The notes below the pieces were generated by a model. It did not search any database and had not been told where the DNA came from. It saw only the letters and a program-made list of their open reading frames with translations. A stretch of DNA of 44,122 bases. It comes from Gemmatimonadaceae bacterium. Its GTDB lineage: Bacteria > Gemmatimonadota > Gemmatimonadetes > Gemmatimonadales > Gemmatimonadaceae. The position numbers and the translations under genes are program-made. Below, in pieces: positions 18,547 to 43,655 of this stretch; position 1 is the stretch's first letter; each line of letters opens with the position of its first letter. The stretch lies in assembly GCA_036555845.1 (NCBI GenBank), contig DATBKN010000539.1:1-44122 (forward strand), written 5' to 3'.

Positions 18547-18550
18547 CCCG

Positions 18551-21386: not shown

Positions 21387-21392
21387 TTGCCG

Positions 21393-22049: not shown

Positions 22050-22162
22050 AAATAGGCGTTAAGCAGTGTTGATAATGGGAAAGGGACTGAACATTGGCCC
22101 GGTTCGGCGTGTCAAATCATTAGGAACTAGCCGATGGGCCCGGGGGTTGCGTTTGAGTATGG

Positions 22163-26478: not shown

Positions 26479-26550
26479 CTGCAGGGCTAGACACCTGAGC
26501 TCCTTCCCTCTTTCACAGACGTCGTTCCACTTCCCCATCTGTAACCCGCA

Positions 26551-26556
26551 AGGAGG
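26551..26556 (+). promoter_or_regulatory. Shine-Dalgarno sequence of the susC-like gene
   Basis: AGGAGG lies 4 nt upstream of ATG 26561. Confidence 0.6.
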
Positions 26557-26560
26557 CAGC

Positions 26561-29551
26561 ATGTACGCGATTCGTTCACCAGGGCAGCTCCGCCCGCGTG
26601 CTCGATCGGTTTTCGTCACCGCCGCGCTTTTGTTGTTAGGCGCTACGGCGCAGGCGCAATCCGGCGTGATCGCGGGAACCGTATCTGACGCGAGCGGTCG
26701 CGGACTTTCGGCAGTCCGCCTCCAGGTCGTCGGTAGTCAGTCGCTCGCGGCCGGGACCGATGATCGCGGCCGGTATGTACTGCGAAACGTGCCGCCGGGA
26801 GCGCAGGTCCTGCGCGCCACGCGCCTCGGCTACCGCCCGGCGACGCAGACAGTCACGGTCCAAAACAATGACACGGCCCGCGTCAACTTCACGTTAGGCG
26901 AGAGCGCCGTCGAGCTTTCCCAGGTCGTCGTCACTGGAACGGGCGGCGCTGTCGAGAAGCGGCAGGTCGGCGCCTCCATCGGTCAGGTGGATGCGGCGAA
27001 ACTGACCGAGTCGATGGCTGTCCCGAACGTTGGAAGCATGCTTTCATCCAAGGTCACGGGTCTGCGCGCGACGACAGTCGGTGGCGGCGTCGGAACAGGC
27101 CAGGACATTCGTATTCGCGGCACCGCGTCGCTCTCGCTGAGCCAGCGGCCGGCGGTGTACGTGGATGGCGTGCGCGTAGATACGCGCGCCACAGAATGGT
27201 TCAACAGCGGCGCGTGCTGCTCGTTTGGCGGTGGCGCGTCGACGGATCGTTTGGGTGACATCAACCCGAACGACATCGAGCGCGTCGAAGTGTTGAAGGG
27301 AGCCGCCGCGGCGACGCTGTACGGGTCGGAAGCGACCAACGGCGTCATCCAGATCTTCACCAAGCGTGGCCGCACGGGCGAGCGCGCGACGGAATGGAAT
27401 CTTGGTGTCTCGACGGGCTTCTCGGAGCTTCGACACAACCTCGAGACGACCCAGTTCCCGCGCTTCGTCGGGCTTCCCGCGTTCGGCGGCGATGGAACAC
27501 GCGCGCTTGACGCCAACGAGACGATGATCGAGAAGGGGCCATACTACGGCGTCGACCTGAGCGCCTCGGGCGGCACGCAGCGCAGCACCTACTTCGCCTC
27601 CTCGCAGTTCAGCAAGGAAGTCGGGTCGATTCAGCCGAACGATCAGGTAAAAGGAACCCTGCGACTGAACCTCTCATTTGCACCTAACGACAAGTGGACG
27701 ATCGAGTCGCGCTCGGCGTATGTGCGAGATCGCATCAACGAGATTCAGGCCGGGAATAACTGGACGGCGCTGCTCGGCAACGCCATCAACGGCAACCCGC
27801 GCTCGGCGACGAAGGTGCGACCGTACGGTGAAGCGTGGGTGCCGGTCGCCGACATCAAGGCGATGACCACGCAGTCCGACGTTGACCGCTGGACCGGCGG
27901 CGTAACGCTGAATTACGCGTTCCGTCCGAACTTCACGCACCGCTTCACTGTCGGCGTGGATGCCGTAAACGACCACAAGGATCGCTTCTTCCCGTACGCC
28001 GGCAACTACGGTCCGGCAGGCGTGACGTTAGGCCAAAAGAACCTCGGACTGCGCAATTACAAGACGTACACGGTGGACTACCTGGCGCAGTACAACTTCA
28101 AGCTGCTTGGCATCGATCACAGTCTCTCCGCGGGTGGCCAGGGTTTCTCAGAAGTTGAGAGCCTGCTGTACGGCATCGGCAATACGTTTGCCGGCCCGGG
28201 CGTGAACTCGATCAGCTCAGCCGCTACGACCTCGTCGCGCGAAGAGTACACGAAGACCGTCAACCTCGGCGTGCTGGCGCAGAATCGCATGTCCTGGAGA
28301 GATCAGCTCTTCATGACCGTTGGACTCCGCGTCGACGGCAACAGCGCGTTCGGAAAAGACTACGGCTACAAGAAGTATCCCAAGGTCGATCTGTCGTACG
28401 ACATGATGAAGGGCGGCTATCTACCCAACTGGGTCAGCGCAGCGCGTGTGCGCGCCGCTTACGGCGAAGCCGGGAAGATGCCGGGGCCGTTCGACTCGTT
28501 CACCAGCTATGCCTCGACGCCGGTCTTCGCGTCCGGCATCGGCATCGTGCCGCTGAACCCGGGCAACGCCGACCTGCGTCCGGAGAAGTCTGTCGAGAAA
28601 GAAGTCGGATTCGAGTTCGGCTTCCTCAACGACCGCCTAGGCGTCGAATGGTCTGTCTACAGACAGACGACGCTCGACGCGATCGTGCAGAAATCCAATC
28701 CACCGTCGGCTGGATTCAGCCAGGCCAAGCGCGTCAACGTGGGCGAGGTCCGGAACGACGGATGGGAAGGGTCGGTGAACTACCAGGTCTATGCAAGTGG
28801 CCGCACCGACTGGACCACAGGCGTTAGGCTCGACGGCAACACGAACAAGATCGTTGACCTTGGAGGCGTGAACCTCGGCAACAACTTCCGTTTGCCGCTC
28901 AAGAAAGACGGGAAGACGACCTACTATCCGATCGGCGGCGTCTGGGATCGTAAGCCGACAGGATTCAGCGTGCAACGCACCGGAACGGATCCCACGTTAG
29001 GCGACTGCACCAAGCTGTCGTACGGTTGCCCCGTGACGACGCGTAGCGATACGGTCATGTACTTTGGCCCCGGCCTGCCGAAATGGAACGCGTCGTGGTC
29101 CAACCAGGTGCGCTACAAGTCGTTGACGTTCTACGGCCTCCTGTCGATGGAGCGCGGCGCATGGTTCGGCAACGGCGATCGCGCCTATCGCATCCGTCAG
29201 GGTGGATCGGATGAATACCTGCAGCACCTCGGGCCCAACGGCGAGCGGACGTTCAAAGCCGACTCCGTTGCGCAATTCGCCAGCATCCTGAACTACAACG
29301 ACAAGCGCGACAACGTCCGGCTTCGCGAGCTCTCGCTGACATGGCAGATTCCCGAGCGCCTATCGAGCTCGTTCAAAGTCGGTCAGACATCTTTGACCCT
29401 AACGGGACAGAACGTGTGGTGGTGGGACGACTGCCACTGCGTCGATCCGAACATGAACTGGGCGGGCGCCAGCTCGTTCAATTTCAATAACGGCTTCTTG
29501 ATGCAGCCTGCTCCGAGAGTATTCCGGGTGCAAGTCCGGACCAGATTCTAG
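26561..29551 (+). CDS. SusC/RagA family TonB-dependent outer-membrane receptor
   Basis: 996-aa ORF with a signal peptide, a carboxypeptidase-regulatory-like N-domain (GTVSDASGRGL...RYVLRNVPPG), a plug domain (IERVEVLKGAAAATLYGSEATNGVIQIFTK) and a C-terminal aromatic residue. AGGAGG lies at 26551-26556, 4 nt upstream of the ATG. Confidence 0.9.
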   Translation: MYAIRSPGQLRPRARSVFVTAALLLLGATAQAQSGVIAGTVSDASGRGLSAVRLQVVGSQSLAAGTDDRGRYVLRNVPPGAQVLRATRLGYRPATQTVTVQNNDTARVNFTLGESAVELSQVVVTGTGGAVEKRQVGASIGQVDAAKLTESMAVPNVGSMLSSKVTGLRATTVGGGVGTGQDIRIRGTASLSLSQRPAVYVDGVRVDTRATEWFNSGACCSFGGGASTDRLGDINPNDIERVEVLKGAAAATLYGSEATNGVIQIFTKRGRTGERATEWNLGVSTGFSELRHNLETTQFPRFVGLPAFGGDGTRALDANETMIEKGPYYGVDLSASGGTQRSTYFASSQFSKEVGSIQPNDQVKGTLRLNLSFAPNDKWTIESRSAYVRDRINEIQAGNNWTALLGNAINGNPRSATKVRPYGEAWVPVADIKAMTTQSDVDRWTGGVTLNYAFRPNFTHRFTVGVDAVNDHKDRFFPYAGNYGPAGVTLGQKNLGLRNYKTYTVDYLAQYNFKLLGIDHSLSAGGQGFSEVESLLYGIGNTFAGPGVNSISSAATTSSREEYTKTVNLGVLAQNRMSWRDQLFMTVGLRVDGNSAFGKDYGYKKYPKVDLSYDMMKGGYLPNWVSAARVRAAYGEAGKMPGPFDSFTSYASTPVFASGIGIVPLNPGNADLRPEKSVEKEVGFEFGFLNDRLGVEWSVYRQTTLDAIVQKSNPPSAGFSQAKRVNVGEVRNDGWEGSVNYQVYASGRTDWTTGVRLDGNTNKIVDLGGVNLGNNFRLPLKKDGKTTYYPIGGVWDRKPTGFSVQRTGTDPTLGDCTKLSYGCPVTTRSDTVMYFGPGLPKWNASWSNQVRYKSLTFYGLLSMERGAWFGNGDRAYRIRQGGSDEYLQHLGPNGERTFKADSVAQFASILNYNDKRDNVRLRELSLTWQIPERLSSSFKVGQTSLTLTGQNVWWWDDCHCVDPNMNWAGASSFNFNNGFLMQPAPRVFRVQVRTRF

Positions 29552-29590
29552 CGATAGCCTAACGAAACCACATACTCGAGACTAATAGCC

Positions 29591-30937
29591 ATGAGTCTAC
29601 ATACTCTTACGTTGCGCGCGGGCCGCATCGCGCTGCATTCAGCCGCGGGAGCGCTGTTCCTCGCGGGAATGGCCTGCAGCGGCGCGCTGGACGTTCCCAA
29701 TCCGCAAGCCTTCGGCGACGACGCTCTCAACAACCCCATCATCCTCAAGACTGTCGCCGACGGCGCCGAGGGTTCGGTGCATCAGGCGTACGACGACATG
29801 ATTCAGATAACTGAGCTGAACAGCGACGACATGGAGTCGACGTCGACGTGGATCGATTGGGAGGATATTTCCGAAGGCCGCCTGCGTCACGACTGGCCAA
29901 CGCCGGGATCGTTCTCTTTCCCGCAAGACCTATTGCTACGCGCGCGCTTCGCGGCGCAGAGCGCCAAGGAGCGCGTTGACAACGTCCTCGGCACGGCTGC
30001 TGGAACGAGTCCGCTCCGTGCTCAAGTGATGCTGATGGACGCAATCGCCGACCTCCTGTTCGGCATGTCAGCCTGCGAGGGGCCGTTGACCGCGGATGCC
30101 GCGAGATCGCCCGACACGGAGTTCTTCAAGCAGGCAGTAACGAAGTTCACGGCGGCGTTGACCGCGGCTCAGGCCATTAGTGGTGACGCGGCGGCGAAGG
30201 CCAAGTGGACCGATGTTGCATATGCGGGACGAGCCCGCGCAAACCTCCTGGCGGGCAACTACGCGGCTGCCAAGACCGACGCGCAGGCAGTGTCGGCTGG
30301 CTTCGTGTACAACGCGCTCTATCAGGAGCTGGCACAGAGCGCGACTGGCAATCAGTTCCACCAGAACCGAAATCGGTCGGGTGGATTGCGGCGCATGTAC
30401 CACGCGCGCGTGCACGAAATTGATCCAGCTCCAACTGGCACAGGTGAGGCGTACCTGCGCGACTGGTTCGACAACACGAAGGACGACAAGCGCATGGCTG
30501 TCACGCGCAAGACAGGACAGCTCGGCGTGAACAACCGCTTCGCGTATTACGGCATCACCAAGTACAACGACCGCAACGCGCCGATCCGGATGTTCTCGAA
30601 GATCGAGATGACACTGATCGAGGCAGAAGCCGCGTTCCGCGTCAACGACTATGCGACAATGACAACCCTGCTCAATTCATTGCGCACGCGGGCGGGAGTT
30701 GCTTTGCCGGCGATTCCAGTCCCAGCATCGGCCGCGGAAGCGCAAGCCGCGCTGCTCAACGAGCGGCAGGCCGAGCTCTTCGTCGAAGGTCACCGCCAGC
30801 AGGATCTGCATCGCTTCAACATGGTCAATTCGTTGTTAGGGCCTGGGCACGCGACAAAGCTGCCACTGTCGCGCAACGAGATCCTGAACAACGCCAACAT
30901 GACGGACGGCGGCGGCGCTTGCCCGAGCGTTTCCTAG
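29591..30937 (+). CDS. RagB/SusD family nutrient-uptake outer-membrane lipoprotein
   Basis: 448-aa ORF immediately downstream of susC-like, with a lipobox (LFLAGMACS) and a C-terminal ERQAELFVEGHRQQDLHRFN SusD-type motif. Confidence 0.8.
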   Translation: MSLHTLTLRAGRIALHSAAGALFLAGMACSGALDVPNPQAFGDDALNNPIILKTVADGAEGSVHQAYDDMIQITELNSDDMESTSTWIDWEDISEGRLRHDWPTPGSFSFPQDLLLRARFAAQSAKERVDNVLGTAAGTSPLRAQVMLMDAIADLLFGMSACEGPLTADAARSPDTEFFKQAVTKFTAALTAAQAISGDAAAKAKWTDVAYAGRARANLLAGNYAAAKTDAQAVSAGFVYNALYQELAQSATGNQFHQNRNRSGGLRRMYHARVHEIDPAPTGTGEAYLRDWFDNTKDDKRMAVTRKTGQLGVNNRFAYYGITKYNDRNAPIRMFSKIEMTLIEAEAAFRVNDYATMTTLLNSLRTRAGVALPAIPVPASAAEAQAALLNERQAELFVEGHRQQDLHRFNMVNSLLGPGHATKLPLSRNEILNNANMTDGGGACPSVS

Positions 30938-30971
30938 CGACGGAGGAGCAGTAGACGGCAGAGTGCAAAGA

Positions 30972-31008
30972 GGGGGCGGCCGCCATTTCCGGACCGCCCC
31001 CTTGTTCT
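30972..31008 (+). terminator. putative intrinsic terminator after susD-like gene
   Basis: GGGGGCGG (30972-30979) pairs with CCGCCCCC (30994-31001) and is followed by TTGTTCT. Confidence 0.55.
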
Positions 31009-31010
31009 GA

Positions 31011-31037
31011 ATCAATGGGGGTCAGACCCCATTTATC
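31011..31037. repeat. palindromic element, copy 3 (ATCAATGGGGGTCAGACCCCATTTATC)
   Basis: Same core and flanks, located just after the susD-like terminator hairpin. Confidence 0.85.
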
Positions 31038-31117
31038 GTGACAGCGAGTCTTGAGGTCGTCGCGTAACTCCGTAGGCTACCAACAATCACTCTATCCCCT
31101 GGCACTAGGCGGACACT

Positions 31118-33562
31118 ATGATCGGCCGACACACACTCAAGTTCGCGAGCCTAACGCTGCTCGGCGCAGCGCTCGCGGCGCCCGCGTTCGCGCAAGCGAA
31201 CTACTCGCGAGCGGAACAGCTGCTCAGTTGGAACACGGACAAGCTCGTGTCAGGCGATCAGGTGAATCCGCAGTGGCTCAAGGACGGCAACCGCTTCTGG
31301 TATCGAAACAAAACGGCTGATGGCGCCGAATTTGTACTCATCGATCCAGTCGCGAATGCGCGGCGGCTGCTCTTCGATCACATGAGACTGGCAGTTGCGA
31401 TGTCGACGGCGGGGGACACCGCGTTTGACGGCAAGCGACTTCCATTCAATACGTTCAAGTTCACGAGCGACGGGGACAACGAAAATGAAATCGAATTCAA
31501 CACTGGGAAGCGGCGATTCGTGTGCAACATTACCAGCTATCGTTGCACCGTTGGGGACACGCTTAAAAGTGATCAGCCCTACGTCCTCTCGCCCGACAAA
31601 AAAAAGGAAGCCTTCATCCACAACTACAACCTCTACGTCCGCACGCGAGGGCAAGCGGACAGCACGCAGCTAACGACGGACGGAATTCAGTGGTTCTCGT
31701 ACGGCCTCGCTGAGCTGCGTCCCTTCCAGACGTTTCGGCCACAAGGGGCGCGACGGCCGTTGTTGCGCTGGTCGCCGGACGGCAAGAAGATCGTGGTCTA
31801 TCGAGTGGACGAGCGCAACGTCGGCCACATGCACTATCTGTCGATGACGTCGCAGCGCGTTAGGCACTTCTCGCAGCCGTACGCCCTCCCTGGCGATTCG
31901 GTGGTGCCGTTCCCGCACATCTATGTCGTTGACGTAGCGACAAAGCAGGTCGTTGAAGCCAAGATCAGTCCCCGGCCCAATCAGTTAGGCATCGGCGGAT
32001 CGGCAGTCGACTCGGCCTGGAGCGAAACGTCGGACAAGGTGCACGTCGCCTTCCAGACGCGCGGCTCGAAGAGCTCCTACCTCGGCGAGATCAACGCGGC
32101 GACAGGCGACTGGCGCGTGATCGCGCGCGACACGGGGAAGACATACACCGAAATCAGCAATCCTCAGGATCCCGCCTCGTGGTACGTGACCAAAGACGGC
32201 AAAGACGCTTTCTGGTGGTCAGAGCGCGATGGCTGGGGACACCTCTATCGCTTCGACGCGACCGGTGTCGCGAACATTACATCGACTGACGGCGACGGCA
32301 GCTTTTCGATGGCGCCGGAGCCCAAGGCGCAACTGACGACGGGCGCATGGCAGGTCGGCCGCATCTCGTACGTCGACGAGACGGCGAAGCAGATCTACTT
32401 CACAGCGCGAGGCCGCGAGGCGAACACGTTCCTCTACTATCCCAAGCTGTATCGCATGGGATACGACGGAAGCAACGTCACCGTCGTGACGCCGGAAGAA
32501 GGCTTCCATCAGATCTCCTTCAGTCCGAGCGGGAAGTATTTCGTCGACACGTATTCGAAGATCGAAACTCCGCCTGTATCAGTTTTGCGCTCGACTGCGA
32601 CAGGTGCTGTCGTTCGCAAGCTCGAGGAGGCGGACGTATCGCGGCTCAAGGCGATCGGGTGGCGGCCCGGCCAGGTGTTCAGCGTGAAGGCGCGCGATGG
32701 CGTCACGGACATCTACGGCGTGCTGTATCTGCCGCCTAACGTGGACTCGACAAAGAAGTATCCCATCATCACGCACATCTATCCCGGCCCGCAGGTCGGC
32801 AGTGTCGGCGCCTGGACCTTCAAGAACGGCGGCGAGCAGTTCTCGCTGGCGGAACTTGGCTTCGTGGTGATTCAGCTCGATCACCTTGGCACTCCGCTCC
32901 GCTCGAAGGCGTTCCACGACAACTACTACGGCTTCTTTGGCGACAACGGGTTGCCGGATCACATCACGGCGATCAAGCAGCTCGCGTCACGCTATCCGTT
33001 CATCGATGCGGATCGCGTAGGGATTTTCGGACACTCGGGCGGCGGCTTTGCGTCGACGGACGCGATCCTGCGCTATCCCGAGTTCTTCAAAGTCGCCGTG
33101 AGTGGCGCGGGAAATCACGACAACCGCAGTTACAACATCTATTGGGCCGAGAAGTATCAAGGACTCATGAACCGCGACACGGTGAAGAAGACAGACAACT
33201 TCGCAACGTCGGCCAACAAGACGATGGCGAAGAATCTGCGCGGTCACTTGCTGCTCATGCACGGCGACATGGATGACAACGTGCATCCGGCGAACACGAT
33301 TCAGGTCGTGGACGAGTTGATCAAGGCGAACCGCACATTCGATCTCATCGTCGCTCCGAACCGTGCACACGGACTCAATGAGCCGTACTTCATTCGCCGG
33401 CGCTGGGACTATTTCGTGCAACACTTGTTAGGCCAGACGCCGCCGGACAACTATCTCATCATCGAGCCCACGAACAATCCGCGGGCAGCGGTGCAGACGC
33501 CGGATGATGAGGACCAGCCGGCTGTCCTGCGGATCTGGCCGATAATGCCGATAAATCCATAG
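31118..33562 (+). CDS. S9 family serine peptidase, dipeptidyl-peptidase IV-like (paralog 1)
   Basis: DPP-IV N-terminal propeller plus a catalytic domain with the nucleophile elbow GHSGGGF, acid GDMDDNVHP and His NRAHG. A signal peptide is present. Confidence 0.9.
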   Translation: MIGRHTLKFASLTLLGAALAAPAFAQANYSRAEQLLSWNTDKLVSGDQVNPQWLKDGNRFWYRNKTADGAEFVLIDPVANARRLLFDHMRLAVAMSTAGDTAFDGKRLPFNTFKFTSDGDNENEIEFNTGKRRFVCNITSYRCTVGDTLKSDQPYVLSPDKKKEAFIHNYNLYVRTRGQADSTQLTTDGIQWFSYGLAELRPFQTFRPQGARRPLLRWSPDGKKIVVYRVDERNVGHMHYLSMTSQRVRHFSQPYALPGDSVVPFPHIYVVDVATKQVVEAKISPRPNQLGIGGSAVDSAWSETSDKVHVAFQTRGSKSSYLGEINAATGDWRVIARDTGKTYTEISNPQDPASWYVTKDGKDAFWWSERDGWGHLYRFDATGVANITSTDGDGSFSMAPEPKAQLTTGAWQVGRISYVDETAKQIYFTARGREANTFLYYPKLYRMGYDGSNVTVVTPEEGFHQISFSPSGKYFVDTYSKIETPPVSVLRSTATGAVVRKLEEADVSRLKAIGWRPGQVFSVKARDGVTDIYGVLYLPPNVDSTKKYPIITHIYPGPQVGSVGAWTFKNGGEQFSLAELGFVVIQLDHLGTPLRSKAFHDNYYGFFGDNGLPDHITAIKQLASRYPFIDADRVGIFGHSGGGFASTDAILRYPEFFKVAVSGAGNHDNRSYNIYWAEKYQGLMNRDTVKKTDNFATSANKTMAKNLRGHLLLMHGDMDDNVHPANTIQVVDELIKANRTFDLIVAPNRAHGLNEPYFIRRRWDYFVQHLLGQTPPDNYLIIEPTNNPRAAVQTPDDEDQPAVLRIWPIMPINP

Positions 33563-33607
33563 GGGCTAGGGGATAGGGGATAGGGCATAGAGCCTAACGC
33601 CATCTAA
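33560..33607 (+). repeat. heptad array of stop triplets starting at the true stop of the S9 peptidase gene
   Basis: TAG at 33560 (the real stop), 33567, 33574, 33581 and 33588, then TAA at 33595, all 7 nt apart, plus TAA at 33605. The units are TAGGGGC TAGGGGA TAGGGGA TAGGGCA TAGAGCC TAACGCC. Confidence 0.9.
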
Positions 33608-33608
33608 C

Positions 33609-33647
33609 GGCCCCGCGGCGAGTACCACACGCGGGGCCGTTCCTTTT
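33609..33647 (+). terminator. putative intrinsic terminator after S9 peptidase paralog 1
   Basis: A 9-bp stem GGCCCCGCG / CGCGGGGCC (33609-33617 / 33630-33638) with a 12-nt loop, followed by GTTCCTTTT. Confidence 0.65.
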
Positions 33648-33662
33648 CCGGGGAAACAGCTC

Positions 33663-36005
33663 ATGAAACGACTGCTGCCGCTCGTTCTGCTACCGAGTGC
33701 TGCTTTGGGCCAGGGGACGCGCACCGACTATGCGCGCGCCGAGCAGTTGTTAGGCTGGAATGCGCAGGAACTCGTGCTGCACGACGCGCCGCGCATCCGC
33801 TGGCTGTCCGGCGATCGCTTCTGGTACCGGGATCGTGCCGAGAAAGGGTACGAGTTTGTCATCGCCGACGCGGCGACAGGTGCCAAACGGCCGGTCTTCG
33901 ATCACGTGCGCCTCGCGGCACAGCTTTCGGAAGCGGCCGACACGACGTACGAACCATACAAGCTCCCGTTCCGGGATTTCACATTCGAGGATGGCGAGAA
34001 GGCAATCCGCTTCAGCGTGGCACGCTCGAAGTTCTGGAAGTGCGACCTAACGAGCTATGTCTGTACCGGACCGGACACGGTCGCGCACTACAAGACAAGC
34101 GACGTCAAATCACCGGACGGGAAGTGGCTCGCGTTCGAGCGCGGCGGCAACCTCTGGATGCGGGCGAACGACGCGAACGCGACGGACGGCGCCGGCGCCG
34201 AGGAGGTCCAGCTCACGACGGACGGAACGGCCGAGTACGGCTACGCCGTGGCGAACGTCGGCTGCTGCGGGCAGGTCACGAGCGTGCGCAACAAGGCGGA
34301 GCTGCGGCCCTACGTGCTCTGGTCTGCTGACTCCAAGCGTTTGGTCACGCACCGCTTCGACATGCGCGGCGTTAGGCAGATGTATCTGCTCGAAACGAAG
34401 AATCCGGGGCCGATTCTACATTCGTATCGCTACGCGCTGCCCGGTGATTCTGTGATCCCGAAGCTCGAGTTGTACGTATTTGACGTCGGGAGCCGGCGTG
34501 GGGTGAAGGTGGATCAATCGGCGGCGGACGTCATCAATACGAGCTGCTGCTGGTTCAGCACCGACACCGTCTGGAAGGACGTGCGCTGGACGCCGCAGGG
34601 TGACCAGGTCTTCTTCACGTTAGGCAAGCGCGGCTACAAGGAGCTGTCGCTGTACGTCGCCGATCCGGCGACCGGGTCGACGCGCAAGGTTCTGACTGAA
34701 ACGGGGAAAACCTACGTCGAGACGAACCAGAACTCGGGTGGTGTTCCCAATTGGCGTCCGGCGGCTGGCGCTCGCGAGATCGTCTGGTGGTCGGAGCGAG
34801 ACGGTTGGGGGCATCTCTACTTGATCGACGCGGCGACCGGTGCAGTGAAGAACCGGATCACAGCTGGCGACTGGATGGTGAGCGACCTCTTGTGGGTCGA
34901 CGACGCGCTGCGCACGGTCTACTTCACGGCGCGTGGTCGCGAGAAGGGCGATCCGTACTTCCGCTATCTCTATCGCGCGCGTCTCGATGGCAGCGGCCTC
35001 GAGCGCCTAACGTCCGAGGAAAGCGACCACGAGGTGCAAGTCTCGCCCAGTGGCAAGTATTTCGTCGACAGCTACTCCAAACCCGACGCACCGCCGGTCA
35101 CGGTGATCCGCCGAGCGGACGGGACCGTCGTTCGCGAGCTGCAGCGTGGCGACATCACTCGCCTCCTCGCGGCCGGCTGGACGATGCCGGAACCGCTCAT
35201 CGTGAAGGCGCGTGACGGTAACACGGAGCTGCGCGGATTGCTCTGGCGTCCGGCGCAGTTCGATTCGAGCAAACACTATCCAATCATCGATTACATCTAC
35301 CCGGGTCCGCAGATCGGTTCGATCGGATCGCGCCAGTTCCGGGCAAACCCGAGCGGGAATGCGCGAGCGCTCGCGGAGCTGGGCTTCTTCGTGCTTCAGG
35401 TCGACGCGTTAGGCACGCCCGGTCGCTCCAAGGCGTTCCACGACTTCTATTATGGGAACATGGGGGACAACGGGATTCCGGATCACATCACGGCAATCAA
35501 GCAGGTCGCGCTCAAGTACAGCCAAGTGGATCTGGATCGCGTCGGCATCTTCGGGCATTCTGGCGGCGGCTTCTCGTCCACGGATGCGATCCTGCGCTAT
35601 CCCGACTTCTTCAAGGTTGCCGTCTCGTCCGCGGGGAACCACGACAATCGCAGCTACGACTATACCTGGGGGGAGAAGTACCATGGTGTTCTCAAGAAGC
35701 TGAGCGATTCCACGGACTCGTTCGACAGCCAGTCGAACTGGCGGCTCGCGAAGAACCTGCGCGGCAAGTTGCTTCTGATGTATGGGACGCTGGATGACAA
35801 CGTGCACCCGAACGCCACGCTCTTGCTAGTCGACGAGCTCATCAAGGCGAACAAGGAGTTCGACATGCTGGTTATGCCGAATCGCAACCACGGCTTCGCG
35901 AACGAACCGTATGTGATCAAGCGGACGTGGGACTACTTTGTGCAGCACTTGTTAGGCAAGGCGCCGCCTGAGGGCTACGTGATTCGCCAACCGGTGACGC
36001 CATGA
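33663..36005 (+). CDS. S9 family serine peptidase, dipeptidyl-peptidase IV-like (paralog 2)
   Basis: Collinear with paralog 1 (GHSGGGF, GTLDDNVHP, NRNHG), with a signal peptide. This is a tandem duplication. Confidence 0.9.
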   Translation: MKRLLPLVLLPSAALGQGTRTDYARAEQLLGWNAQELVLHDAPRIRWLSGDRFWYRDRAEKGYEFVIADAATGAKRPVFDHVRLAAQLSEAADTTYEPYKLPFRDFTFEDGEKAIRFSVARSKFWKCDLTSYVCTGPDTVAHYKTSDVKSPDGKWLAFERGGNLWMRANDANATDGAGAEEVQLTTDGTAEYGYAVANVGCCGQVTSVRNKAELRPYVLWSADSKRLVTHRFDMRGVRQMYLLETKNPGPILHSYRYALPGDSVIPKLELYVFDVGSRRGVKVDQSAADVINTSCCWFSTDTVWKDVRWTPQGDQVFFTLGKRGYKELSLYVADPATGSTRKVLTETGKTYVETNQNSGGVPNWRPAAGAREIVWWSERDGWGHLYLIDAATGAVKNRITAGDWMVSDLLWVDDALRTVYFTARGREKGDPYFRYLYRARLDGSGLERLTSEESDHEVQVSPSGKYFVDSYSKPDAPPVTVIRRADGTVVRELQRGDITRLLAAGWTMPEPLIVKARDGNTELRGLLWRPAQFDSSKHYPIIDYIYPGPQIGSIGSRQFRANPSGNARALAELGFFVLQVDALGTPGRSKAFHDFYYGNMGDNGIPDHITAIKQVALKYSQVDLDRVGIFGHSGGGFSSTDAILRYPDFFKVAVSSAGNHDNRSYDYTWGEKYHGVLKKLSDSTDSFDSQSNWRLAKNLRGKLLLMYGTLDDNVHPNATLLLVDELIKANKEFDMLVMPNRNHGFANEPYVIKRTWDYFVQHLLGKAPPEGYVIRQPVTP

Positions 36006-37420
36006 AGGTCTTAGGGATAGGGGTAGGGGTAGGGGTATTCGTTGCTCTGACGGCGAGCGTCGCACAAGCGCAGCGGCCAGCCGTGGGGCCCGCGGTGCGG
36101 CAGTTTGTGCGCAGTGACGCGGCCGTCATCGCGCTCACGAACGCGCGCGTGATCGACGGCACCGGCGCCGCAGGGCGTGACGGGCAGACGATCCTCATTC
36201 AGGACGGCAAGATCGCGGCGTTAGGCGCGACGGGCAGTGTTACGATCCCACCAGGTGCCGAGACGATGGACCTTGCTGGTAAGTCGGTGCTGCCGGGGCT
36301 CGTCATGGTGCACGAGCATCTGTTCTATCCAACTGGTCCCGGGACGTACGGGCAGCTTGGCCTGAGTTTTTTGCGGTTGTATCTCGCTGGCGGCGTCACG
36401 ACGATGCGCACCGGCGGAAACATGAGTGGCTACGCCGACATCAGCTACAAACGCGGCATCGACTCCGGAGTCGTGGCAGGACCGGCGATGGACGCGACGG
36501 CGCCATATCTCAATGGCGGGCCGTTCCCGCTGCGGCAGGTGCGCGTCCTCAAAGGCCCGGAAGACGCCCGAAAGATGGTCGCATATTGGGCAGACGAAGG
36601 CGCGACGTCGTTCAAGGCGTACATGCAGATCACGCGCGCCGAGTTAGGCGCCGCGATCGAGGAAGCGCATAAGCGCGGGCTCAAGGTGACCGGGCACCTC
36701 TGTTCGGTCACCTTCGCCGAAGCGGCGAAGCTCGGCATCGACGATCTCGAGCACGGATTCATTGTCGCGACCGACTTCGCGCCTAACAAGCAAGCCGACG
36801 TCTGCACCAATTCGCGGGGGTTCGATGCAGTGGACCCGGCCGGACCAGCCGCGCGGGAGCTCATCCGCGAGCTTGTCGCGCGCAAAGTCGCAATAACATC
36901 CACCCTAACTGTGTTCGAGACCTCCGTCCCGGGACGACCCGTGCCGCCGGGCCTCGACGTTCTTGTTCCACAGCTGCGCGAGCAATTCGAACGGCAGCAC
37001 GCAGCGATTGCTCGGCAAACTGATACGACGCGACTCGCTGGGCTCAAGAAAGAGATGGCGATGGAGCTCGCATTTGCGAAGGCCGGCGGACTGCTCGTCG
37101 CTGGTACGGATCCAACTGGGTATGGCGGCGTTATTCCTGGCTACTCAAATCAGCGGCAACTGGAGCTTCTGGTTGAGGCTGGATTCACACCGCTCGAAGC
37201 GATCAGCATCGGGACGCTGAATGGCGCGAAGTACTTGGGGCGCGAGGCGCAGATCGGCACGATCGCTGTAGGGAAGCAGGCTGACCTCATGGTTGTAGCC
37301 GGGAATCCCGCCGCGCGAATAGGCGACGTGCGCAACGTGGAGATCGTCTTCCGGTTAGGCGTCGCCTATGATCCCAAGAAGCTGATCGAGTCCGTCAAGG
37401 GAAGCGTGGGGCTGTATTAG
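36002..37420 (+). CDS. metal-dependent amidohydrolase family protein (secreted)
   Basis: ATGA overlap with the preceding gene, a signal peptide, the VLPGLVMVHEHL HxH motif and a C-terminal GTDP...IAVGKQADL pattern typical of the family. Confidence 0.85.
   Translation: MKVLGIGVGVGVFVALTASVAQAQRPAVGPAVRQFVRSDAAVIALTNARVIDGTGAAGRDGQTILIQDGKIAALGATGSVTIPPGAETMDLAGKSVLPGLVMVHEHLFYPTGPGTYGQLGLSFLRLYLAGGVTTMRTGGNMSGYADISYKRGIDSGVVAGPAMDATAPYLNGGPFPLRQVRVLKGPEDARKMVAYWADEGATSFKAYMQITRAELGAAIEEAHKRGLKVTGHLCSVTFAEAAKLGIDDLEHGFIVATDFAPNKQADVCTNSRGFDAVDPAGPAARELIRELVARKVAITSTLTVFETSVPGRPVPPGLDVLVPQLREQFERQHAAIARQTDTTRLAGLKKEMAMELAFAKAGGLLVAGTDPTGYGGVIPGYSNQRQLELLVEAGFTPLEAISIGTLNGAKYLGREAQIGTIAVGKQADLMVVAGNPAARIGDVRNVEIVFRLGVAYDPKKLIESVKGSVGLY
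36011..36037 (+). repeat. in-frame GGGATA/GGGGTA hexamer repeat inside the signal-peptide coding region
   Basis: TTAGGGATAGGGGTAGGGGTAGGGGTA encodes LGIGVGVGV. The unit sequence resembles the 33560 heptads. Confidence 0.8.
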
Positions 37421-37564
37421 GTCAGAGGCCCGAGATGAAACGTTCGATGAAACATCCATGTGCTCGTAAGAGCCGTAATTACAGGGTCCCGCAGAGTCAT
37501 CAGCAAAAGTGGGAACTTCGATCATCTGCGTGGCACTATTACGGAAGCCACCTCGAGTAACCCA

Positions 37565-38494
37565 ATGATTATTCGTTCCAAGTCCAAGAACGACATCGTC
37601 AGCTCCGAAATCACGTCGGAGTCTGCCTACGTCAACCGACGCCAGTTCCTGAAGGACACCGGGCTTATCAGCTTGACCGCCGGGGGGATTCTGGCTGCCT
37701 GCCGTGAAGAGGCGTCGGCGGCGCATACACAGGACCTCAAGGCGGAGCAGACGCCGTACGAGGACGTCACGAGCTACAACAATTTCTACGAGTTCGGGAC
37801 CGACAAAGAGGATCCCAAAGCCAACGCTCAGCAATTCAAGACGAAGCCGTGGAGCGTGAAGGTCGAAGGGCTCGTGAGCAAGCCGGCCACATACCAGCTG
37901 GAAGATTTCATCAAGCCGTACAAGCTCGAAGAGCGGATCTATCGACACCGCTGCGTCGAAGCGTGGTCCATGGTGATTCCGTGGCTGGGCTTCCCGATGT
38001 CCGATTTGATCAAGCGCGTGGAGCCATTAGGGTCGGCCAAGTACATCGAGTTCACCACGCTGCTGGATCCGAAACAGATGCCGGGTCAGCGGCTGCCGTA
38101 TCTCGAGTGGCCGTACGTGGAAGGTCTGCGTCTCGACGAGGCGATGCATCCGCTCGCGATATTTGCCGTGGGGTTATACGGCAAGACGCTGCCTAACCAG
38201 AACGGCGCGCCTCTCCGGCACATCGTACCGTGGAAGTATGGCTTCAAGGGCTGCAAGTCGATCGTGCGCATTCGATTCACGGACAAGGAACCGCGCACGG
38301 CGTGGAATATCGCGGCGCCGCAGGAGTACGGTTTCTATGCGAATGTGAATCCCGAGGTGGATCATCCGCGCTGGAGCCAGGCGACTGAGCGGCGCGTGGG
38401 CGAATTCCGCAGACGTAAGACGTTGATGTTCAACGGGTACGCCGATCAGGTGGCGAGCCTGTACTCGGGAATGGACCTGCGGAAGCTCTACTAG
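37565..38494 (+). CDS. msrP: protein-methionine-sulfoxide reductase catalytic subunit MsrP (YedY)
   Basis: The start [10 protein letters not shown]...[13 protein letters not shown] carries a TAT signal. The YNNFYEFG and [16 protein letters not shown] molybdopterin-domain motifs are characteristic of MsrP. Confidence 0.9.
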
Positions 38495-39234
38495 TGGGGG
38501 TTGGGGCGCGGGGCGCGACGGACCAAGCGGGAGTTCAAGAGTCCGAACGACAGCGGGGGGCCCCCCCCGCTGTTCAATCTGCGGCAACTTCGCCGCCACG
38601 CGTTAACCGAAAACGCGCCAGCATTCCCAAAGAGCCGCCTTACCTTCACGCGGTCATCATCGTGCTGTGCTGCCTCCCATTCATCTGGGGAGGTTTGGCC
38701 CTCTATTCCGACGCCTTCCGTGGCACTAGCTACCTCACTGCGGAACCTGTCAAAGAGATCGAACATTACACCGGGAAGTGGATACTCCGCTTCCTCGCGC
38801 TTACTCTAGCGATCACGCCCGCCATCGCCATCACGCGATTGGGATGGCTCGTCCGCTATCGGCGCACCTTCGGTCTCTTCGCGTTCGGCTACGCGTGCAC
38901 CCACTTCCTGCTGTACCTGACGCTCGATCTGCAGCTCGCCTTCTCGGACATCTGGGAAGACATCAGCAAGCGCATTTACATCACCATTGGATTCACTGCG
39001 TTGCTGTTGCTGGTACCCCTCGCGCTAACATCAACCAAGGCCTCGATCAGACGGCTCGGCGGCAAACGCTGGAACGCGTTGCATCGCCTGATCTACGTCA
39101 CCTGCGTGTTGGGTGTCATTCATTTTTGGATGTCGGTCAAGCGCGACGTCACGTCGCCGATTCTCTTTTCGCTGCTCTTCGCCACGTTGCTCGGCTGGCG
39201 CCTCTTTCGCGCCAGACGTTCGCGCGCTGCCTAA
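38494..39234 (+). CDS. msrQ: protein-methionine-sulfoxide reductase heme-binding membrane subunit MsrQ (YedZ)
   Basis: PFIWGGLALY...PVKEIEHYTGKWILRFLALTLAITP aligns with the MsrQ N-terminal region, and multiple TM helices carry conserved His. The start is uncertain. The only upstream in-frame start is GTG 38494, which adds about 45 non-membrane residues and spans a GC hairpin. GTG near 38662 is an alternative. Confidence 0.8.
   Translation: MGVGARGATDQAGVQESERQRGAPPAVQSAATSPPRVNRKRASIPKEPPYLHAVIIVLCCLPFIWGGLALYSDAFRGTSYLTAEPVKEIEHYTGKWILRFLALTLAITPAIAITRLGWLVRYRRTFGLFAFGYACTHFLLYLTLDLQLAFSDIWEDISKRIYITIGFTALLLLVPLALTSTKASIRRLGGKRWNALHRLIYVTCVLGVIHFWMSVKRDVTSPILFSLLFATLLGWRLFRARRSRAA
38550..38573 (+). 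other. GC-rich palindrome between msrP and the membrane core of msrQ
   Basis: ACAGCGGGGGG CC CCCCCCGCTGT, a 10-11 bp stem with no U-tract. Confidence 0.6.
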
Positions 39235-40595
39235 CGCCACTTCTCGCGGCGAGCATCGCCTGCGCCGATTCCACGGCGACGACGCTCGCGCCGGCTGTAC
39301 CTGAAACCGAGCTCTCCGCCGGCACGGCAACTGTATTAGACGCATCCGGCCGCGCCTTCCAGCTGCCGATCCCCACGCTCGTCGGCACGCGGCTCGAGCG
39401 TCACACGCTCGGCGACTCGCTCTTCAGTCTGGGATTCCTCGACGGCCTCACGGCATCGCCGACTGCGCCTAACGTGGGATTGGGTCCCCTGTTCAACAAT
39501 ACGTCCTGCTTCGCGTGTCACGAGCAGAACGGCCGCGGGCAGCCGCCGCTAGCGCCGCGCGCCTATCGCGGGATGCTCTTCCGTCTGAGCGTCCCGCCGA
39601 TCTTCGGCGACGACCCTCCGCGGCCGGTGCCGAGCTTCGGCGGCCAGCTGCAAAACCGCGCCGTCGCCGGCTTTGCCGCCGAAGGGACCGTCGACATCAC
39701 ACTGGAACGGGTGACGGGTCAGTTCCAGGACGGCACGACCTACGAGCTGCAGCGTCCCACGTATCGCATCGCCTCGCCGTACGTCGAAATGCCGCCTAAC
39801 GTGCAGCTCTCGCCGCGCATCGCGCCGCAAATCGTGGGGCTCGGCCTCCTCGAAGCGGTGCCCGACCCGGAGATCCTCATGCGCGCGGATCCCAACGATC
39901 GCGACGGCGACGGCATCTCAGGAAAGCCGAACGTTGTATTCGGCGGCATCACTGGAGAACGAAAGCTCGGTCGCTTCGGACACAAGGCCAGCACTGCCTC
40001 GCTGCTGATTCAGACGGCCACGGCATATAACGAGGATGTCGGAGTCACGTCGCCCCTTCTACCCACAGAGAATTGTGCGCTACAGCATCCCATTTGCGGC
40101 CCGCACGCTCCCGACATCACGCTCGACCACGTCCAGATCGTTGCCTTCTACACACGCACACTGGCGGTTCCCGCGCGGCGCAACGTGCGCGACACCGACG
40201 TCAAACGCGGCGCCGAGCTTTTCACCCGCGCGGGATGCTCGGCGTGCCACACGCCGACGCTTCATACCGACGCGACAAATGTGGAGCCTGAGCTGGCACA
40301 CCTAACGATCCACCCGTACAGCGATCTTCTGCTGCACGATATGGGACCGGACCTCTCCGACGGGCGTCCCGACTTCCGCGCGTCCGGAAGCGAATGGCGC
40401 ACGCCGCCGCTCTGGGGAATCGGACTTTCCGGCTTCGTCACCGGCCACACGCGCTTCCTCCATGACGGGCGAGCCCGCAATCTGGAGGAAGCGGTGTTAT
40501 GGCACGGCGGTGAAGCGCAGCGAGCGCGCGATTTCTACCGCAGTCTCAGCAAGAACGAACGCGACGCGCTGCTGAAGTTTCTGAGCTCGCTCTGA
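39126..40595 (+). CDS. di-heme c-type oxidoreductase, DUF1111 family (thiol-oxidoreductase/peroxidase-like) lipoprotein
   Basis: Two CxxCH motifs (CFACH and CSACH) and a conserved C-terminal WRTPPLWG...FLHDGRARNLEEAVLWHGGEA. A lipobox LLAASIAC lies just after the msrQ stop. The true start is unclear (TTG 39126 or CTG 39195). The ORF-track start at 38778 overlaps msrQ for over 450 nt and is discounted. Confidence 0.75.
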   Translation: MDVGQARRHVADSLFAALRHVARLAPLSRQTFARCLTPLLAASIACADSTATTLAPAVPETELSAGTATVLDASGRAFQLPIPTLVGTRLERHTLGDSLFSLGFLDGLTASPTAPNVGLGPLFNNTSCFACHEQNGRGQPPLAPRAYRGMLFRLSVPPIFGDDPPRPVPSFGGQLQNRAVAGFAAEGTVDITLERVTGQFQDGTTYELQRPTYRIASPYVEMPPNVQLSPRIAPQIVGLGLLEAVPDPEILMRADPNDRDGDGISGKPNVVFGGITGERKLGRFGHKASTASLLIQTATAYNEDVGVTSPLLPTENCALQHPICGPHAPDITLDHVQIVAFYTRTLAVPARRNVRDTDVKRGAELFTRAGCSACHTPTLHTDATNVEPELAHLTIHPYSDLLLHDMGPDLSDGRPDFRASGSEWRTPPLWGIGLSGFVTGHTRFLHDGRARNLEEAVLWHGGEAQRARDFYRSLSKNERDALLKFLSSL

Positions 40596-40607
40596 CGCGA
40601 CCGGAGC

Positions 40608-41093
40608 CTAACGCGGCTGACCGACCACGAAAACCTGCTGGCTCACATTCGCGAGAGCAGCAGGCATGTCGACGCCGTCGAGCCAGCGAACCGTGCGGCG
40701 TAACCCGTTCGCGCGAACCATGATGCGGTGATCGCGCCGATCGCAGCACGTGTTACTTGGGACATACTCCGCGTCGAGTGACGCGAATTCCTTGCTTGCT
40801 GCGGCCGTGAAAAGTGCATCCACTTCCGCGGCGGTCATCGTGCGGATCACACGCGCCGGAAAGACGCACTCCTCTTTCAGTTGCTCACAGAGCTCGGGTG
40901 CGCCAGCGGAAACGACGCCGGTGGCGCTATCGACACTGTGCGCGAACTTCATGTACGCAATCCCACCCACGCCGAAGTACTCGATCCGCGCCGCCCTGGT
41001 ATCCGGCTCCAAAAGATTGTTCGACGTTGCACATGCTAGGGCGGCGCCTGCTGCACTCAGTGCTAGGATTTTCGAAACGAATCTGAACGACAT
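40608..41093 (-). CDS. hypothetical lipoprotein
   Basis: 161-aa ORF with MSFRFVSKILALSAAGAALAC (a lipobox). The TAG stop lies inside the motif. Confidence 0.55.
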   Translation of the reverse strand: MSFRFVSKILALSAAGAALACATSNNLLEPDTRAARIEYFGVGGIAYMKFAHSVDSATGVVSAGAPELCEQLKEECVFPARVIRTMTAAEVDALFTAAASKEFASLDAEYVPSNTCCDRRDHRIMVRANGLRRTVRWLDGVDMPAALANVSQQVFVVGQPR

Positions 41094-41127
41094 CTTTCAC
41101 CACACCTCATGAGGTACTGTCTGTAGC

Positions 41128-42315
41128 GTGTTGCCACGCACCGACTACGACACACTCGTTGTCACATCCCCCGGACTCGAAGACGTAACGCAGCGCGAAC
41201 TCGCCGCGCTAGGCGTCACGCCGAGCGCACGAGCGGAGCCTGGCATCATCCCCGTGTGCGTTCCCCAGAGGACGTTATACACCATGAACTTGCACCTGCG
41301 CACCGCGAGTCGCATAACGGTGCTGGGGGCCAACTTCCGCGCGCGCACGTTCGCCGAACTGGAGCGCCGAGCCAAGGCCGTACCCTGGGATGAGTGGCTC
41401 CGGAATGACACGCGAGTGCGACTGCGCGTTACGTGTCGTAAGTCACGCCTATATCACTCGGACGCCGTTGCGGAACGCGTGGCCGGCGCCATCGCCGCAC
41501 GCACGCGAGCCCTGGTCTCTGCCGACAATTCGGCGGATGACGATGACCCGTCGGCACAACAGCTGATTCTCGTTAGGCTTCTGCGCGATGACTGCACGAT
41601 TCGCATCGATACGTCAGGCGCGCACCTGCATCGCCGTGGCTATCGTCAGGCAGTGGCCAAAGCTCCGCTGCGCGAAACGCTCGCCGCCGCGATGCTACTC
41701 GCCGCGAAGTGGAATATCGGCGCTCCTCTGATCGACCCGTTCTGTGGTTCAGGCAGCATCGCCATCGAAGCAGCGCTCCTCGCACGCAACATCGCGCCCG
41801 GCATCCGACGCGAGTTCGCTTTCATGAACTGGCCGACGTTCGATAGCTCCGCATGGAGCGCGACGCTCGAGCACGCGCGAACACACGAACGCAATGCCGC
41901 GCCCGCTCCGATCATCGCCGCAGACCGTGACGAAGGAGCGATCGAGGCAACTCGCGCAAACGCGCAAAGGGCCGGCGTGCTCGCTGACATCGACGCACGT
42001 TGTCAGCCGCTCTCCGCACTCGAGCCCCCGGCAACGCCAGGCTGGCTCGTCAGCAATCCACCGTACGGAGTGCGAGTCGGTGAGCGGCACCGTCTGCGCG
42101 ATCTTTATGCAGTGATAGGCCGGTTGAGCCGCGAGCGCCTGCGCGATTGGCACATCGCGCTGCTGAGCGCACACCCGGAACTGGACGCCCAACTGGCACT
42201 GCCGCTGGTGGAGACCTTCAGAACGACCAACGGAGGACTCAACGTGCGGCTAGTCTCGCGTGTACCTTTGGAACCGCCAGCTGGCGGCGCGACGGCAGCA
42301 ACGATATCGCGTTAG
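41128..42315 (+). CDS. THUMP-domain class I SAM-dependent RNA methyltransferase (RlmL/RlmK-like, COG0116 type)
   Basis: SAM motif I DPFCGSGSIAIEAA and motif IV SNPPYG, with an N-terminal THUMP-like region. The TAG stop lies inside the motif. Confidence 0.8.
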   Translation: MLPRTDYDTLVVTSPGLEDVTQRELAALGVTPSARAEPGIIPVCVPQRTLYTMNLHLRTASRITVLGANFRARTFAELERRAKAVPWDEWLRNDTRVRLRVTCRKSRLYHSDAVAERVAGAIAARTRALVSADNSADDDDPSAQQLILVRLLRDDCTIRIDTSGAHLHRRGYRQAVAKAPLRETLAAAMLLAAKWNIGAPLIDPFCGSGSIAIEAALLARNIAPGIRREFAFMNWPTFDSSAWSATLEHARTHERNAAPAPIIAADRDEGAIEATRANAQRAGVLADIDARCQPLSALEPPATPGWLVSNPPYGVRVGERHRLRDLYAVIGRLSRERLRDWHIALLSAHPELDAQLALPLVETFRTTNGGLNVRLVSRVPLEPPAGGATAATISR

Positions 42316-42337
42316 GCGACGCCGGCAGCAGCTTGCG

Positions 42338-43603: not shown

Positions 43604-43655
43604 GCAGGACACTCATTCGATAGCTCGGCTATGAGCGCGGGTTAGATTCCGCCAC

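Follow-up and report, generated by a model that had tools for sequence, protein, structure and literature searches.

GTTAGG, a hyperabundant and evenly spaced DNA word in a Gemmatimonadaceae lineage and in several phages

The closest described counterparts of the sequence reported here are the DNA uptake sequence (DUS) of the Neisseriaceae, the uptake signal sequence (USS) of the Pasteurellaceae, HIP1 (for highly iterated palindrome 1; GCGATCGC) of cyanobacteria and Chi (GCTGGTGG in Escherichia coli). DUS are highly conserved, have a spacing that matches the size of recombination fragments and are absent from recently acquired genes (PMC2397512). Both USS and DUS shift peptide composition, sit at poorly conserved residues and occupy reading frames that correlate with preferred codons (PMC2817400). 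HIP1 exceeds expectation 15- to 300-fold, is conserved more than codon usage explains and is quasi-periodic (PMC5861425); its function was long obscure and is now linked to transformation, which it has been reported to enhance in a methylation-dependent manner (bioRxiv 10.64898/2026.06.24.733823). Here we describe another such word, the hexamer GTTAGG, in a stretch of 44,122 nucleotides from a Gemmatimonadaceae bacterium (hereafter the window), which has 63.5% G+C and is nearly all coding. Its hyperabundance seems not to have been described before: nothing relevant came up in full-text searches of the literature, either on the word as such or on uptake sequences or competence in Gemmatimonas or Gemmatimonadetes. 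For comparison we used 78 loci gathered with a peptidase query and a wider sample of 38 extra word-rich contigs (240 kb, 56-73% G+C), which came from a metagenome scan for two spaced copies.

Counting both strands, the window holds 96 copies of GTTAGG against 6.27 +/- 2.46 in dinucleotide-preserving shuffles (shuffle maximum 12), a 15-fold over-representation. The 8-mer CGTTAGGC is the most frequent of the window, with 56 copies where 1-5 are expected, and is over-represented 11- to 50-fold. This range of enrichment is similar to that of HIP1, as is the frequency of about one or more copies per gene. On either side, 74 copies of the hexamer are flanked by C and 13-14 by T, giving YGTTAGGY. The core itself is sharp, since G precedes 96 of the 101 TTAGG copies in the window, and one-step variants of GTTAGG occur near expectation both there and in 366 kb of pooled word-rich DNA (window, loci and contigs). 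Like DUS and USS, GTTAGG is a short asymmetric word that is found in both orientations, at one or more copies per kb, mostly in genes and in several frames; in contrast to them, its core spans 6 bp with pyrimidine flanks instead of 9-12 bp. We considered whether the hexamer belongs to a longer repeat or to a mobile element and rejected this, because no conservation was found around the copies of the window past one base on either side, apart from codon structure. HIP1 is a palindrome that holds the targets of two known orphan methyltransferases, whereas GTTAGG is not palindromic (the reverse complement of CGTTAGGC is GCCTAACG, another word), and we know of no methyltransferase for it.

The copies are evenly spaced. 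Gap lengths have a coefficient of variation of 0.65, compared with 0.99 +/- 0.10 under random placement, and none of 20,000 trials gave a value as low. Two gaps are shorter than 100 bp where 18.5 are expected, and none falls below 87 bp; restricting the random draws to compatible dipeptide sites, at unchanged class totals, leaves the deficit in place (2 against 14.9, P<1e-4). No copy on the + strand lies within 100 bp of a copy on the - strand, against 10.2 such cases expected. Short gaps are also depleted in the pooled host loci (11 against 38) and in the phage contigs described below (11 against 22.5), with an excess at 200-400 bp. GTTAGG copies thus interfere with one another whatever their orientation. 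Because mutation gives independent placement, this short-range interference fits a benefit that saturates within each stretch of DNA and not independent mutation. Orientation flips along with gene blocks three times in 44 kb and shows no polarity beyond gene strand; no switch was seen in the GC skew of the window. The spacing suggests one copy per fragment, as for DUS, which are conserved as GTTAGG is (PMC2397512), and is quasi-regular like that of HIP1, which also occupies coding DNA in all frames, partly with non-preferred codons, and is conserved beyond codon usage (PMC5861425). In contrast to DUS and USS, the window is devoid of inverted GTTAGG pairs acting as terminators.

To place the copies in frame, we used 39 gene calls supported by a frame test on G+C at third codon positions and by a Pfam check. 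On the sense strand, 47 copies read xxG-TTA-GGx (Leu-Gly) and 12 read GTT-AGG (Val-Arg); on the antisense strand, 14 read CCT-AAC (Pro-Asn) and 11 read xxC-CTA-ACx (Leu-Thr). The word further supplies 12 of 37 stops, with GT-TAG-G ending 8 genes and CC-TAA-C ending 4. A first-pass annotation of this DNA had given the same numbers for Leu-Gly, Leu-Thr and both kinds of stop; its 11 Val-Arg and 15 Pro-Asn copies become 12 and 14. Distinct genic copies number 91, fewer than these 96 assignments, since two overlapping genes share a single copy in five cases (6405, 7994, 10354, 24411, 42311), and five copies are intergenic (11221, 17553, 29558, 33593, 39468). At 6405, 7994 and 10354 one copy provides both stops of a convergent gene pair, TAA for the gene on the + strand and TAG for that on the - strand, with a 4-bp overlap. 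TAG is the most frequent stop of the window genes (20/37), which is unusual at 63.5% G+C. The earlier claim that the motif forces rare codons is strongly borne out for TTA, since 47 of 68 TTA codons lie within GTTAGG and TTA makes up 1.6% of the Leu codons outside it, and holds partially for AGG (12 of 45) and CTA (11 of 47), of which about a quarter lie in the word. The word is built of the rarest codons of a GC-rich genome, whereas the frames of USS and DUS favour preferred codons (PMC2817400). No tRNA genes were found in the window, and 50 related loci hold two only, Arg-GCG and a phage Arg-UCU.

GTTAGG fills 47 of the 112 compatible Leu-Gly sites in the window, 14 of 40 Pro-Asn, 12 of 113 Val-Arg and 11 of 78 Leu-Thr sites. 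From codon usage outside the word in the window, simple arithmetic predicts that GTTAGG would fill about 0.3% of Val-Arg and about 5% of Pro-Asn sites. Val-Arg, which requires two rare codons, is less full than most classes that require one, and Leu-Thr is about as seldom filled as Val-Arg; the fill rate of a frame class appears to track codon cost, not strand. The roughly 2:1 excess on the coding strand had been suspected to reflect nothing but the supply of dipeptides, and we found this to be so: sense and antisense sites are filled to a similar extent (59/225 and 25/118, p=0.36), and 322 kb of independent word-rich DNA holds 199 sense and 182 antisense copies, with fills of 48% for Pro-Asn, 20% for Leu-Gly, 15% for Leu-Thr and 8% for Val-Arg. 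Since strand use follows the supply of compatible dipeptides, it gives no hint of a role at the RNA level. Locally, the sense excess is most clearly broken at 37460-40595, where a molybdopterin oxidoreductase resembling MsrP, a ferric-reductase membrane protein resembling MsrQ and, after them, a di-haem (DHOR) peroxidase-like protein are encoded on the + strand, and all six copies at 38192-40607 are on the - strand.

The closest relatives of the window are metagenome-assembled Gemmatimonadaceae, and the word is restricted to one lineage. GTTAGG is the top-ranked hexamer in the window and in loci L001, L002, L004, L012, L015, L020, L068 and L074, is virtually tied for the top in L072 and is more weakly enriched in L009, L010 and L014. 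All enriched loci belong to Gemmatimonadaceae or are labelled Gemmatimonadota only, with 0.4-2.2 copies per kb, and essentially no GTTAGG is present in equally related species, in other Gemmatimonadota or in Acidobacteriota. The word marks only part of the Gemmatimonadaceae (range 0 to 2.2 per kb) and is thus, like DUS and USS, confined to one bacterial family; HIP1, by contrast, is nearly phylum-wide. Over the 366 kb of word-rich DNA its density is 1.82 copies per kb, 57-fold above the 0.032 of word-free relatives. The window sequence itself was found in soil and rhizosphere metagenomes. Contigs matched by exact-protein look-ups were all at most 8 kb long and 99.9% identical to the window, and soil-metagenome contigs placed on it gave low, patchy coverage, mixed with relatives. 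At 37419-38620 and 42828-43428 these contigs are 10- to 50-fold deeper than over the rest of the window, which is likely to be cross-mapping of conserved domains from other community members.

Codon alignments with the orthologs indicate both persistence and turnover of the word. L001 (91% amino-acid identity) shares 13 of 20 copies, L002 (79%) 10 of 18 and L015 (73%) 3 of 19. At sites without amino-acid change, L002 has an identical hexamer in 64% of cases, compared with 27.5% for control hexamers (p=0.0045), and L001 in 68%, compared with 46% (p=0.065); few of the rare Leu codons that lie outside GTTAGG are retained (CTA 0/13, TTG 6/28). These comparisons support the view that GTTAGG persists beyond neutral expectation where the protein is unchanged and turns over at greater divergence. 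Together with the use of all frames on both strands and of stops, and with a fill above that predicted from codons outside the word, this persistence substantiates the first-pass proposal that the word is maintained at the DNA level. The ongoing gain and loss that had also been proposed is supported by L015, which is as word-dense as the window in spite of its few shared copies, and can now be extended, since many gains alter the protein: PK became VR at 31859, AMG became ALG at 35408, TNG became TLG at 28027, and PT or PS became PN at several sites. Differences between close relatives are point changes that are spread over all six positions of the hexamer. As judged from the alignments, the word has been gained in parallel at identical Pro-Asn, Leu-Gly and Val-Arg sites, which are filled in scattered lineages. 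Codons within the word are identical to those of word-poor orthologs in 57% of cases, compared with 69% of other codons (p=0.0008, somewhat inflated by the pooling of five orthologs), and Leu-Gly is 1.3 times commoner in the window than in word-poor orthologs over the same alignment columns. GTTAGG thus resembles USS and DUS in shifting peptide composition and in sitting at less conserved residues (PMC2817400). The only long word-free stretch in a word-rich metagenome contig (L435, 5357-9626, 4.3 kb) holds circularly permuted ATP-grasp genes and Alpha-E genes, which are split across frames. We rejected a mobile element as its explanation on account of these frameshifted ATP-grasp genes; it could be an assembly chimera or a set of decayed genes.

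The word is also enriched in phages. In IMG/VR, which was scanned twice for two spaced copies, most matches were due to chance, but some contigs carry many dispersed copies. At least five phage contigs (L179, L193, L227, L298 and L224; Table 1) hold 1.1-3.7 copies per kb, with observed-to-expected ratios of 5-15 that are significant after discounting the two copies used for finding each contig. L245 looks like the same phage as L298, to judge from the near-identical spacing of its copies. The enriched phages use GTTAGG in all frames. L227 fills 23 of 48 compatible dipeptide sites, a higher fraction than the window, and 78 of its relatives at 42-44% protein identity have a mean of 0.12 copies per kb; the phage enrichment is therefore lineage-specific. 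L298 fills 11 of 12 Pro-Asn sites and 1 of 25 Leu-Gly sites, mostly on the antisense strand, and L224 fills 7 of 10 Val-Arg and 0 of 9 Leu-Gly sites. These two phages tolerate the word yet avoid TTA, which again suggests that codon cost and not strand matters. The enrichment presumably goes with the host, and hosts were inferred from the word and from G+C content. This sets GTTAGG apart from DUS, which are absent from recently acquired genes (PMC2397512).

Several viral contigs carry the word in other arrangements or with additional features. In L224, a tRNA-Arg(UCU) gene at 9779-9855 directly adjoins a GTTAGG copy, and this phage, which uses no TTA copies, may supply its own decoder for a rare codon forced by the word. 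Two contigs labelled viral, L215 (~548-1692) and L284 (~1635-3149), contain inverted pairs GGCCTAACG ... GTTAGGCC around segments of 5-110 bp that themselves contain hairpins. Such a pair is found again every 300-400 bp; the pairs have no Rfam match and contrast with the window, where close pairs in opposite orientation are absent; they look like a family of small structured elements bounded by GTTAGG. In the viral contigs L194, L197 and L125 the hexamer forms tandem or near-tandem arrays with a period of ~30-40 bp, which are distinct from the dispersed word and should not count as cases of it.

The reading that we favour, tentatively, is that GTTAGG is a word on the DNA by which self is recognised whatever the orientation, most likely in connection with transformation, and whose reader we infer. 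YGTTAGGY would be read on double-stranded DNA, in either orientation, by a DNA-handling machine of one Gemmatimonadaceae lineage, and selection or a transmission bias (molecular drive) would hold about one copy per 200-500 bp. The rare TTA, AGG and CTA codons, the extra Leu-Gly, the amino-acid replacements and the many TAG and TAA stops would then be side effects of writing the word wherever the protein permits. The most likely reader would be a natural-transformation pathway, and the word would act as a watermark of self-DNA that favours the uptake or acceptance of DNA from like bacteria, as do DUS, USS and, as has been proposed, HIP1. If one copy per fragment is enough, a near second copy adds nothing and even spacing follows. 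Such a watermark fits the orientation independence, the spacing of one copy per fragment, the effects on the proteome, conservation with turnover, the patchy and graded distribution and the current view of HIP1. Several observations weigh against it. No competence gene is present among the window genes, neither the window nor the loci contain genes for uptake machinery or for a receptor specific to the word, and word-free relatives have no replacement 'dialect' word, their top hexamers having z-scores of ~5-10 and being unrelated to GTTAGG. A core of 6 bp is a weaker discriminator than the 9-12 bp of DUS and USS. Spacing and conservation fit any cis signal with a saturating benefit and therefore do not single out uptake. 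Mobile DNA is not word-poor, given the densities in the phage contigs, and a drive through transformation alone does not predict such enrichment, DUS being reported absent from recently acquired genes. This last point could be reconciled if the phages are temperate ones in transformable populations, or if the mark also protects DNA inside the cell.

Recombination offers another possible role, which we consider unlikely: the word would tame a RecBCD/AddAB-type helicase-nuclease of the lineage and start recombination in the manner of Chi, so that word-bearing DNA survives breaks, and phages would copy it to escape degradation or to borrow host recombination. GTTAGG is short, asymmetric and over-represented in its host, as known Chi sites are, and the enrichment of unrelated phage lineages would be explained, including the high fill of L227 next to its word-poor relatives. 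There is also a documented precedent, since two reports describe lambdoid phages without their own recombination module as strongly enriched in host Chi, some of them beyond chance or host levels (PMC3784561, PMC12315714), and the first reports clustering of Chi in such phages (PMC3784561). However, Chi acts in one direction, which predicts independent orientations, whereas opposite GTTAGG copies exclude each other at short range as strongly as copies of the same orientation (0 against 10.2) and the word favours neither orientation once the coding supply is considered. Within 44 kb, no polarity is apparent other than that of gene strand, and L227 is balanced, with 15 copies on + and 14 on -; the sites of Chi-rich lambdoid phages are mostly co-oriented. 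Chi sites moreover have a leading-strand bias and are much sparser than GTTAGG, which exceeds them in both density and fold-enrichment. It is also quite unlikely, in our estimation, that the word is the target of a modification, in which an orphan or defence-linked methyltransferase or another enzyme would mark it and the marked sites would hold off a scanning nuclease or machine in cis, so that host and phage would both gain from many evenly spread sites. The methylation dependence of the HIP1 effect on transformation speaks for this, as do orientation independence and spacing, which fit a mark that protects over a distance in cis, and the phage enrichment, which fits mimicry of a self mark. 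We take CCTAAC (6 bp, asymmetric, with A at position 5) to be shaped like Type III, Type IIG and bacteriophage exclusion (BREX) targets, as a lead only. Classical restriction and BREX targets are avoided by phages and not normally hoarded by hosts; the phage contigs show the opposite of such avoidance, being 5- to 15-fold enriched, and the window encodes no DNA methyltransferase, its sole methyltransferase being an RlmL-type rRNA enzyme. If self were marked by a modification and the mark read in cis, the findings in host and phages would be reconciled.

The remaining explanations dispense with a function on DNA. Biased repair of the very-short-patch type, or a mutational bias, might convert near-matches into a functionless word; phages replicating in the host would acquire the same bias, and the graded density among relatives looks as if an enzyme had been gained, lost or changed in activity. 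Such a by-product is very improbable, because it expects Poisson-like placement, whereas there is a strong shortage of short gaps. The 18 one-step variants show no telling pattern in the 366 kb of pooled DNA, and none of these neighbours is clearly drained or enriched. Moreover, close relatives differ over all six positions, gains often take two or more changes, amino-acid replacements included, and L227 fills a larger share of its compatible sites than the window does. Finally, the word might be an RNA motif, CGUUAGGC, or a means of deliberate pausing at rare codons or dipeptides. The 59 sense against 25 antisense in-frame copies of the window are in its favour, but this excess is gone once the supply of dipeptides is taken into account, and it is not found in the pooled counts. 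Phage L298 carries the word mostly antisense, some copies are intergenic or stop both genes of a convergent pair, and an Rfam search of the window matched no family. An RNA or translation signal is thus nearly excluded. 

We hold it possible, with some reserve, that self-recognition by GTTAGG represents an undescribed system for recognising self-DNA in the little-studied Gemmatimonadota, either as one more independent origin of an uptake or transformation watermark, in addition to DUS, USS and perhaps HIP1, or as a new orientation-independent, DNA-protecting cis signal that phages counterfeit.

The behaviour of the word within individual genes can be followed in two paralogous S9/DPP-IV family peptidases of the window (peptidases A and B; Table 1). 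As the first-pass annotation had stated, four of the six Leu-Gly dipeptides of the peptidase at 33663-36005 are encoded by G-TTA-GGC (33749, 34619, 35408, 35951), and the HLLG site reads TTG-TTA-GGC in both paralogs (33427, 35951). For the paralog at 31118-33562 the share is two of six and not, as had been given, two of seven. At the (D/H)LGTP site the word is indeed found in one paralog (GCG-TTA-GGC) and CAC-CTT-GGC in the other, but the difference is not purely synonymous as had been assumed: the hexamer is impossible at this site of peptidase A without an amino-acid change, because no His codon ends in G. The ortholog alignments indicate that the gain at 34619 changed an amino acid and that the word at 31859 arose through two amino-acid changes. 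Both peptidases belong to a block at 25744-37420 that comprises, in order, a CarboxypepD_reg protein, a TonB-dependent receptor (SusC-like, with the same N-terminal domain), a SusD-family protein, the two peptidases and an amidohydrolase that matches Xaa-Pro dipeptidase weakly and below the cutoff. The block looks like a peptide-utilisation cluster, and its gene order is kept in many Gemmatimonadaceae loci (L004, L012, L015 and others). The window also contains an HhH-GPD gene that we considered as a possible repair enzyme; it is weakly AlkA-like with no sign of a T:G mismatch glycosylase, and this candidate was dropped.

Table 1. Positions and contents of the features discussed. Positions are those of the window; phage contigs are listed at the end.
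Feature	Position	Strand	Details	Basis
Dispersed GTTAGG field, n=96	1..44122	53 on +, 43 on -	gaps: mean 460 bp, min 87 bp, max 1611 bp	
Copy giving TAA of + strand GNAT gene and TAG of convergent - strand gene	6405..6410	-	4-bp gene overlap	
Copy giving both stops of convergent pair hyp101 / cupin gene	7994..7999	-		gene calls
Copy giving both stops of convergent pair hyp286 / FliA-type sigma factor gene	10354..10359	-		gene calls
Copy giving TAG stop of 750-amino-acid gene	24411..24416	+	also Pro-Asn in overlapping convergent MscS gene	gene calls
Paralogous S9 peptidase A, 5 copies	31118..33562	+	50% amino-acid identity to B; copies 31150(-), 31859(+), 31984(+), 32735(-), 33427(+)	
GTT-AGG (VR), peptidase A	31859..31864	+	10 orthologs outside the lineage of the window: nine Pro-Lys, one Thr-Lys	
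HLLG-site copy, peptidase A	33427..33432	+	present too in L001, L010, L015	ortholog alignment
Intergenic copy between both peptidase genes	33593..33598	-		gene calls
S9/DPP-IV family peptidase B, 7 copies	33663..36005	+		Pfam DPPIV_N, Peptidase_S9
Sense TTG-TTA-GGC (LLG), peptidase B	33749..33754	+	L001 has TTG-TTG-GGC	ortholog alignment
Antisense GAC-CTA-ACG (DLT), peptidase B	34046..34051	-	also in L001	ortholog alignment
Sense GTT-AGG (VR), peptidase B	34371..34376	+	in L002, L015, L072; L001 has GTC-AGG	ortholog alignment
Sense ACG-TTA-GGC (TLG), peptidase B	34619..34624	+	most orthologs TAG (Thr-Ala-Gly)	ortholog alignment
Antisense CGC-CTA-ACG (RLT), peptidase B	35006..35011	-	also in L001, L002	ortholog alignment
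Sense GCG-TTA-GGC (ALG) at (D/H)LGTP site, peptidase B	35408..35413	+	word-poor orthologs AMG; peptidase A CAC-CTT-GGC	
Sense TTG-TTA-GGC at HLLG site, peptidase B	35951..35956	+	identical 9-mer at homologous site of peptidase A	
Copy giving TAG stop of RlmL-like methyltransferase gene	42311..42316	+	also Val-Arg in overlapping histidine-kinase open reading frame	gene calls
Phage contig L179			14 copies in 12.1 kb; terminase, portal, head protease, major head protein	
Phage contig L193			16 copies in 14.1 kb; tail-fibre and endolysin matches	
Phage contig L227		15 on +, 14 on -	29 copies in 7.8 kb; virion proteins, endolysin	
Phage contig L298			34 copies in 14.5 kb; portal, protease, head protein	
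Phage contig L224			23 copies in 11.3 kb; 50% G+C	

Overall, hyperabundant genomic words are already known as a kind; what is new in GTTAGG is the phylum, the form, a non-palindromic hexamer of its host's rarest codons at about twice the density of DUS and USS, and the behaviour, in which copies strongly exclude one another at short range whatever their orientation and several phages, apparently unrelated, are enriched as well. Few short words reach such abundance, and every one known so far has brought a new part of DNA biology to light: specific DNA uptake through USS and DUS, and the control of recombination and self/non-self discrimination through Chi; HIP1 is still being worked out. The present case is unusually clean, being a sharp hexamer at ~2 copies per kb, evenly spaced and strong enough to alter proteins, and it comes from an abundant and barely cultured soil phylum. 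That phages of several lineages carry it too suggests an arms race over this signal or some dependency on it. For annotation, it is a caution that codon-usage and stop-codon statistics are shaped here by a constraint on DNA and not by translation. GTTAGG could help to recognise Gemmatimonadaceae contigs during binning and to link soil phages to their hosts, and if it is true that it governs the acceptance of DNA, it could help the development of genetic tools in Gemmatimonadota.

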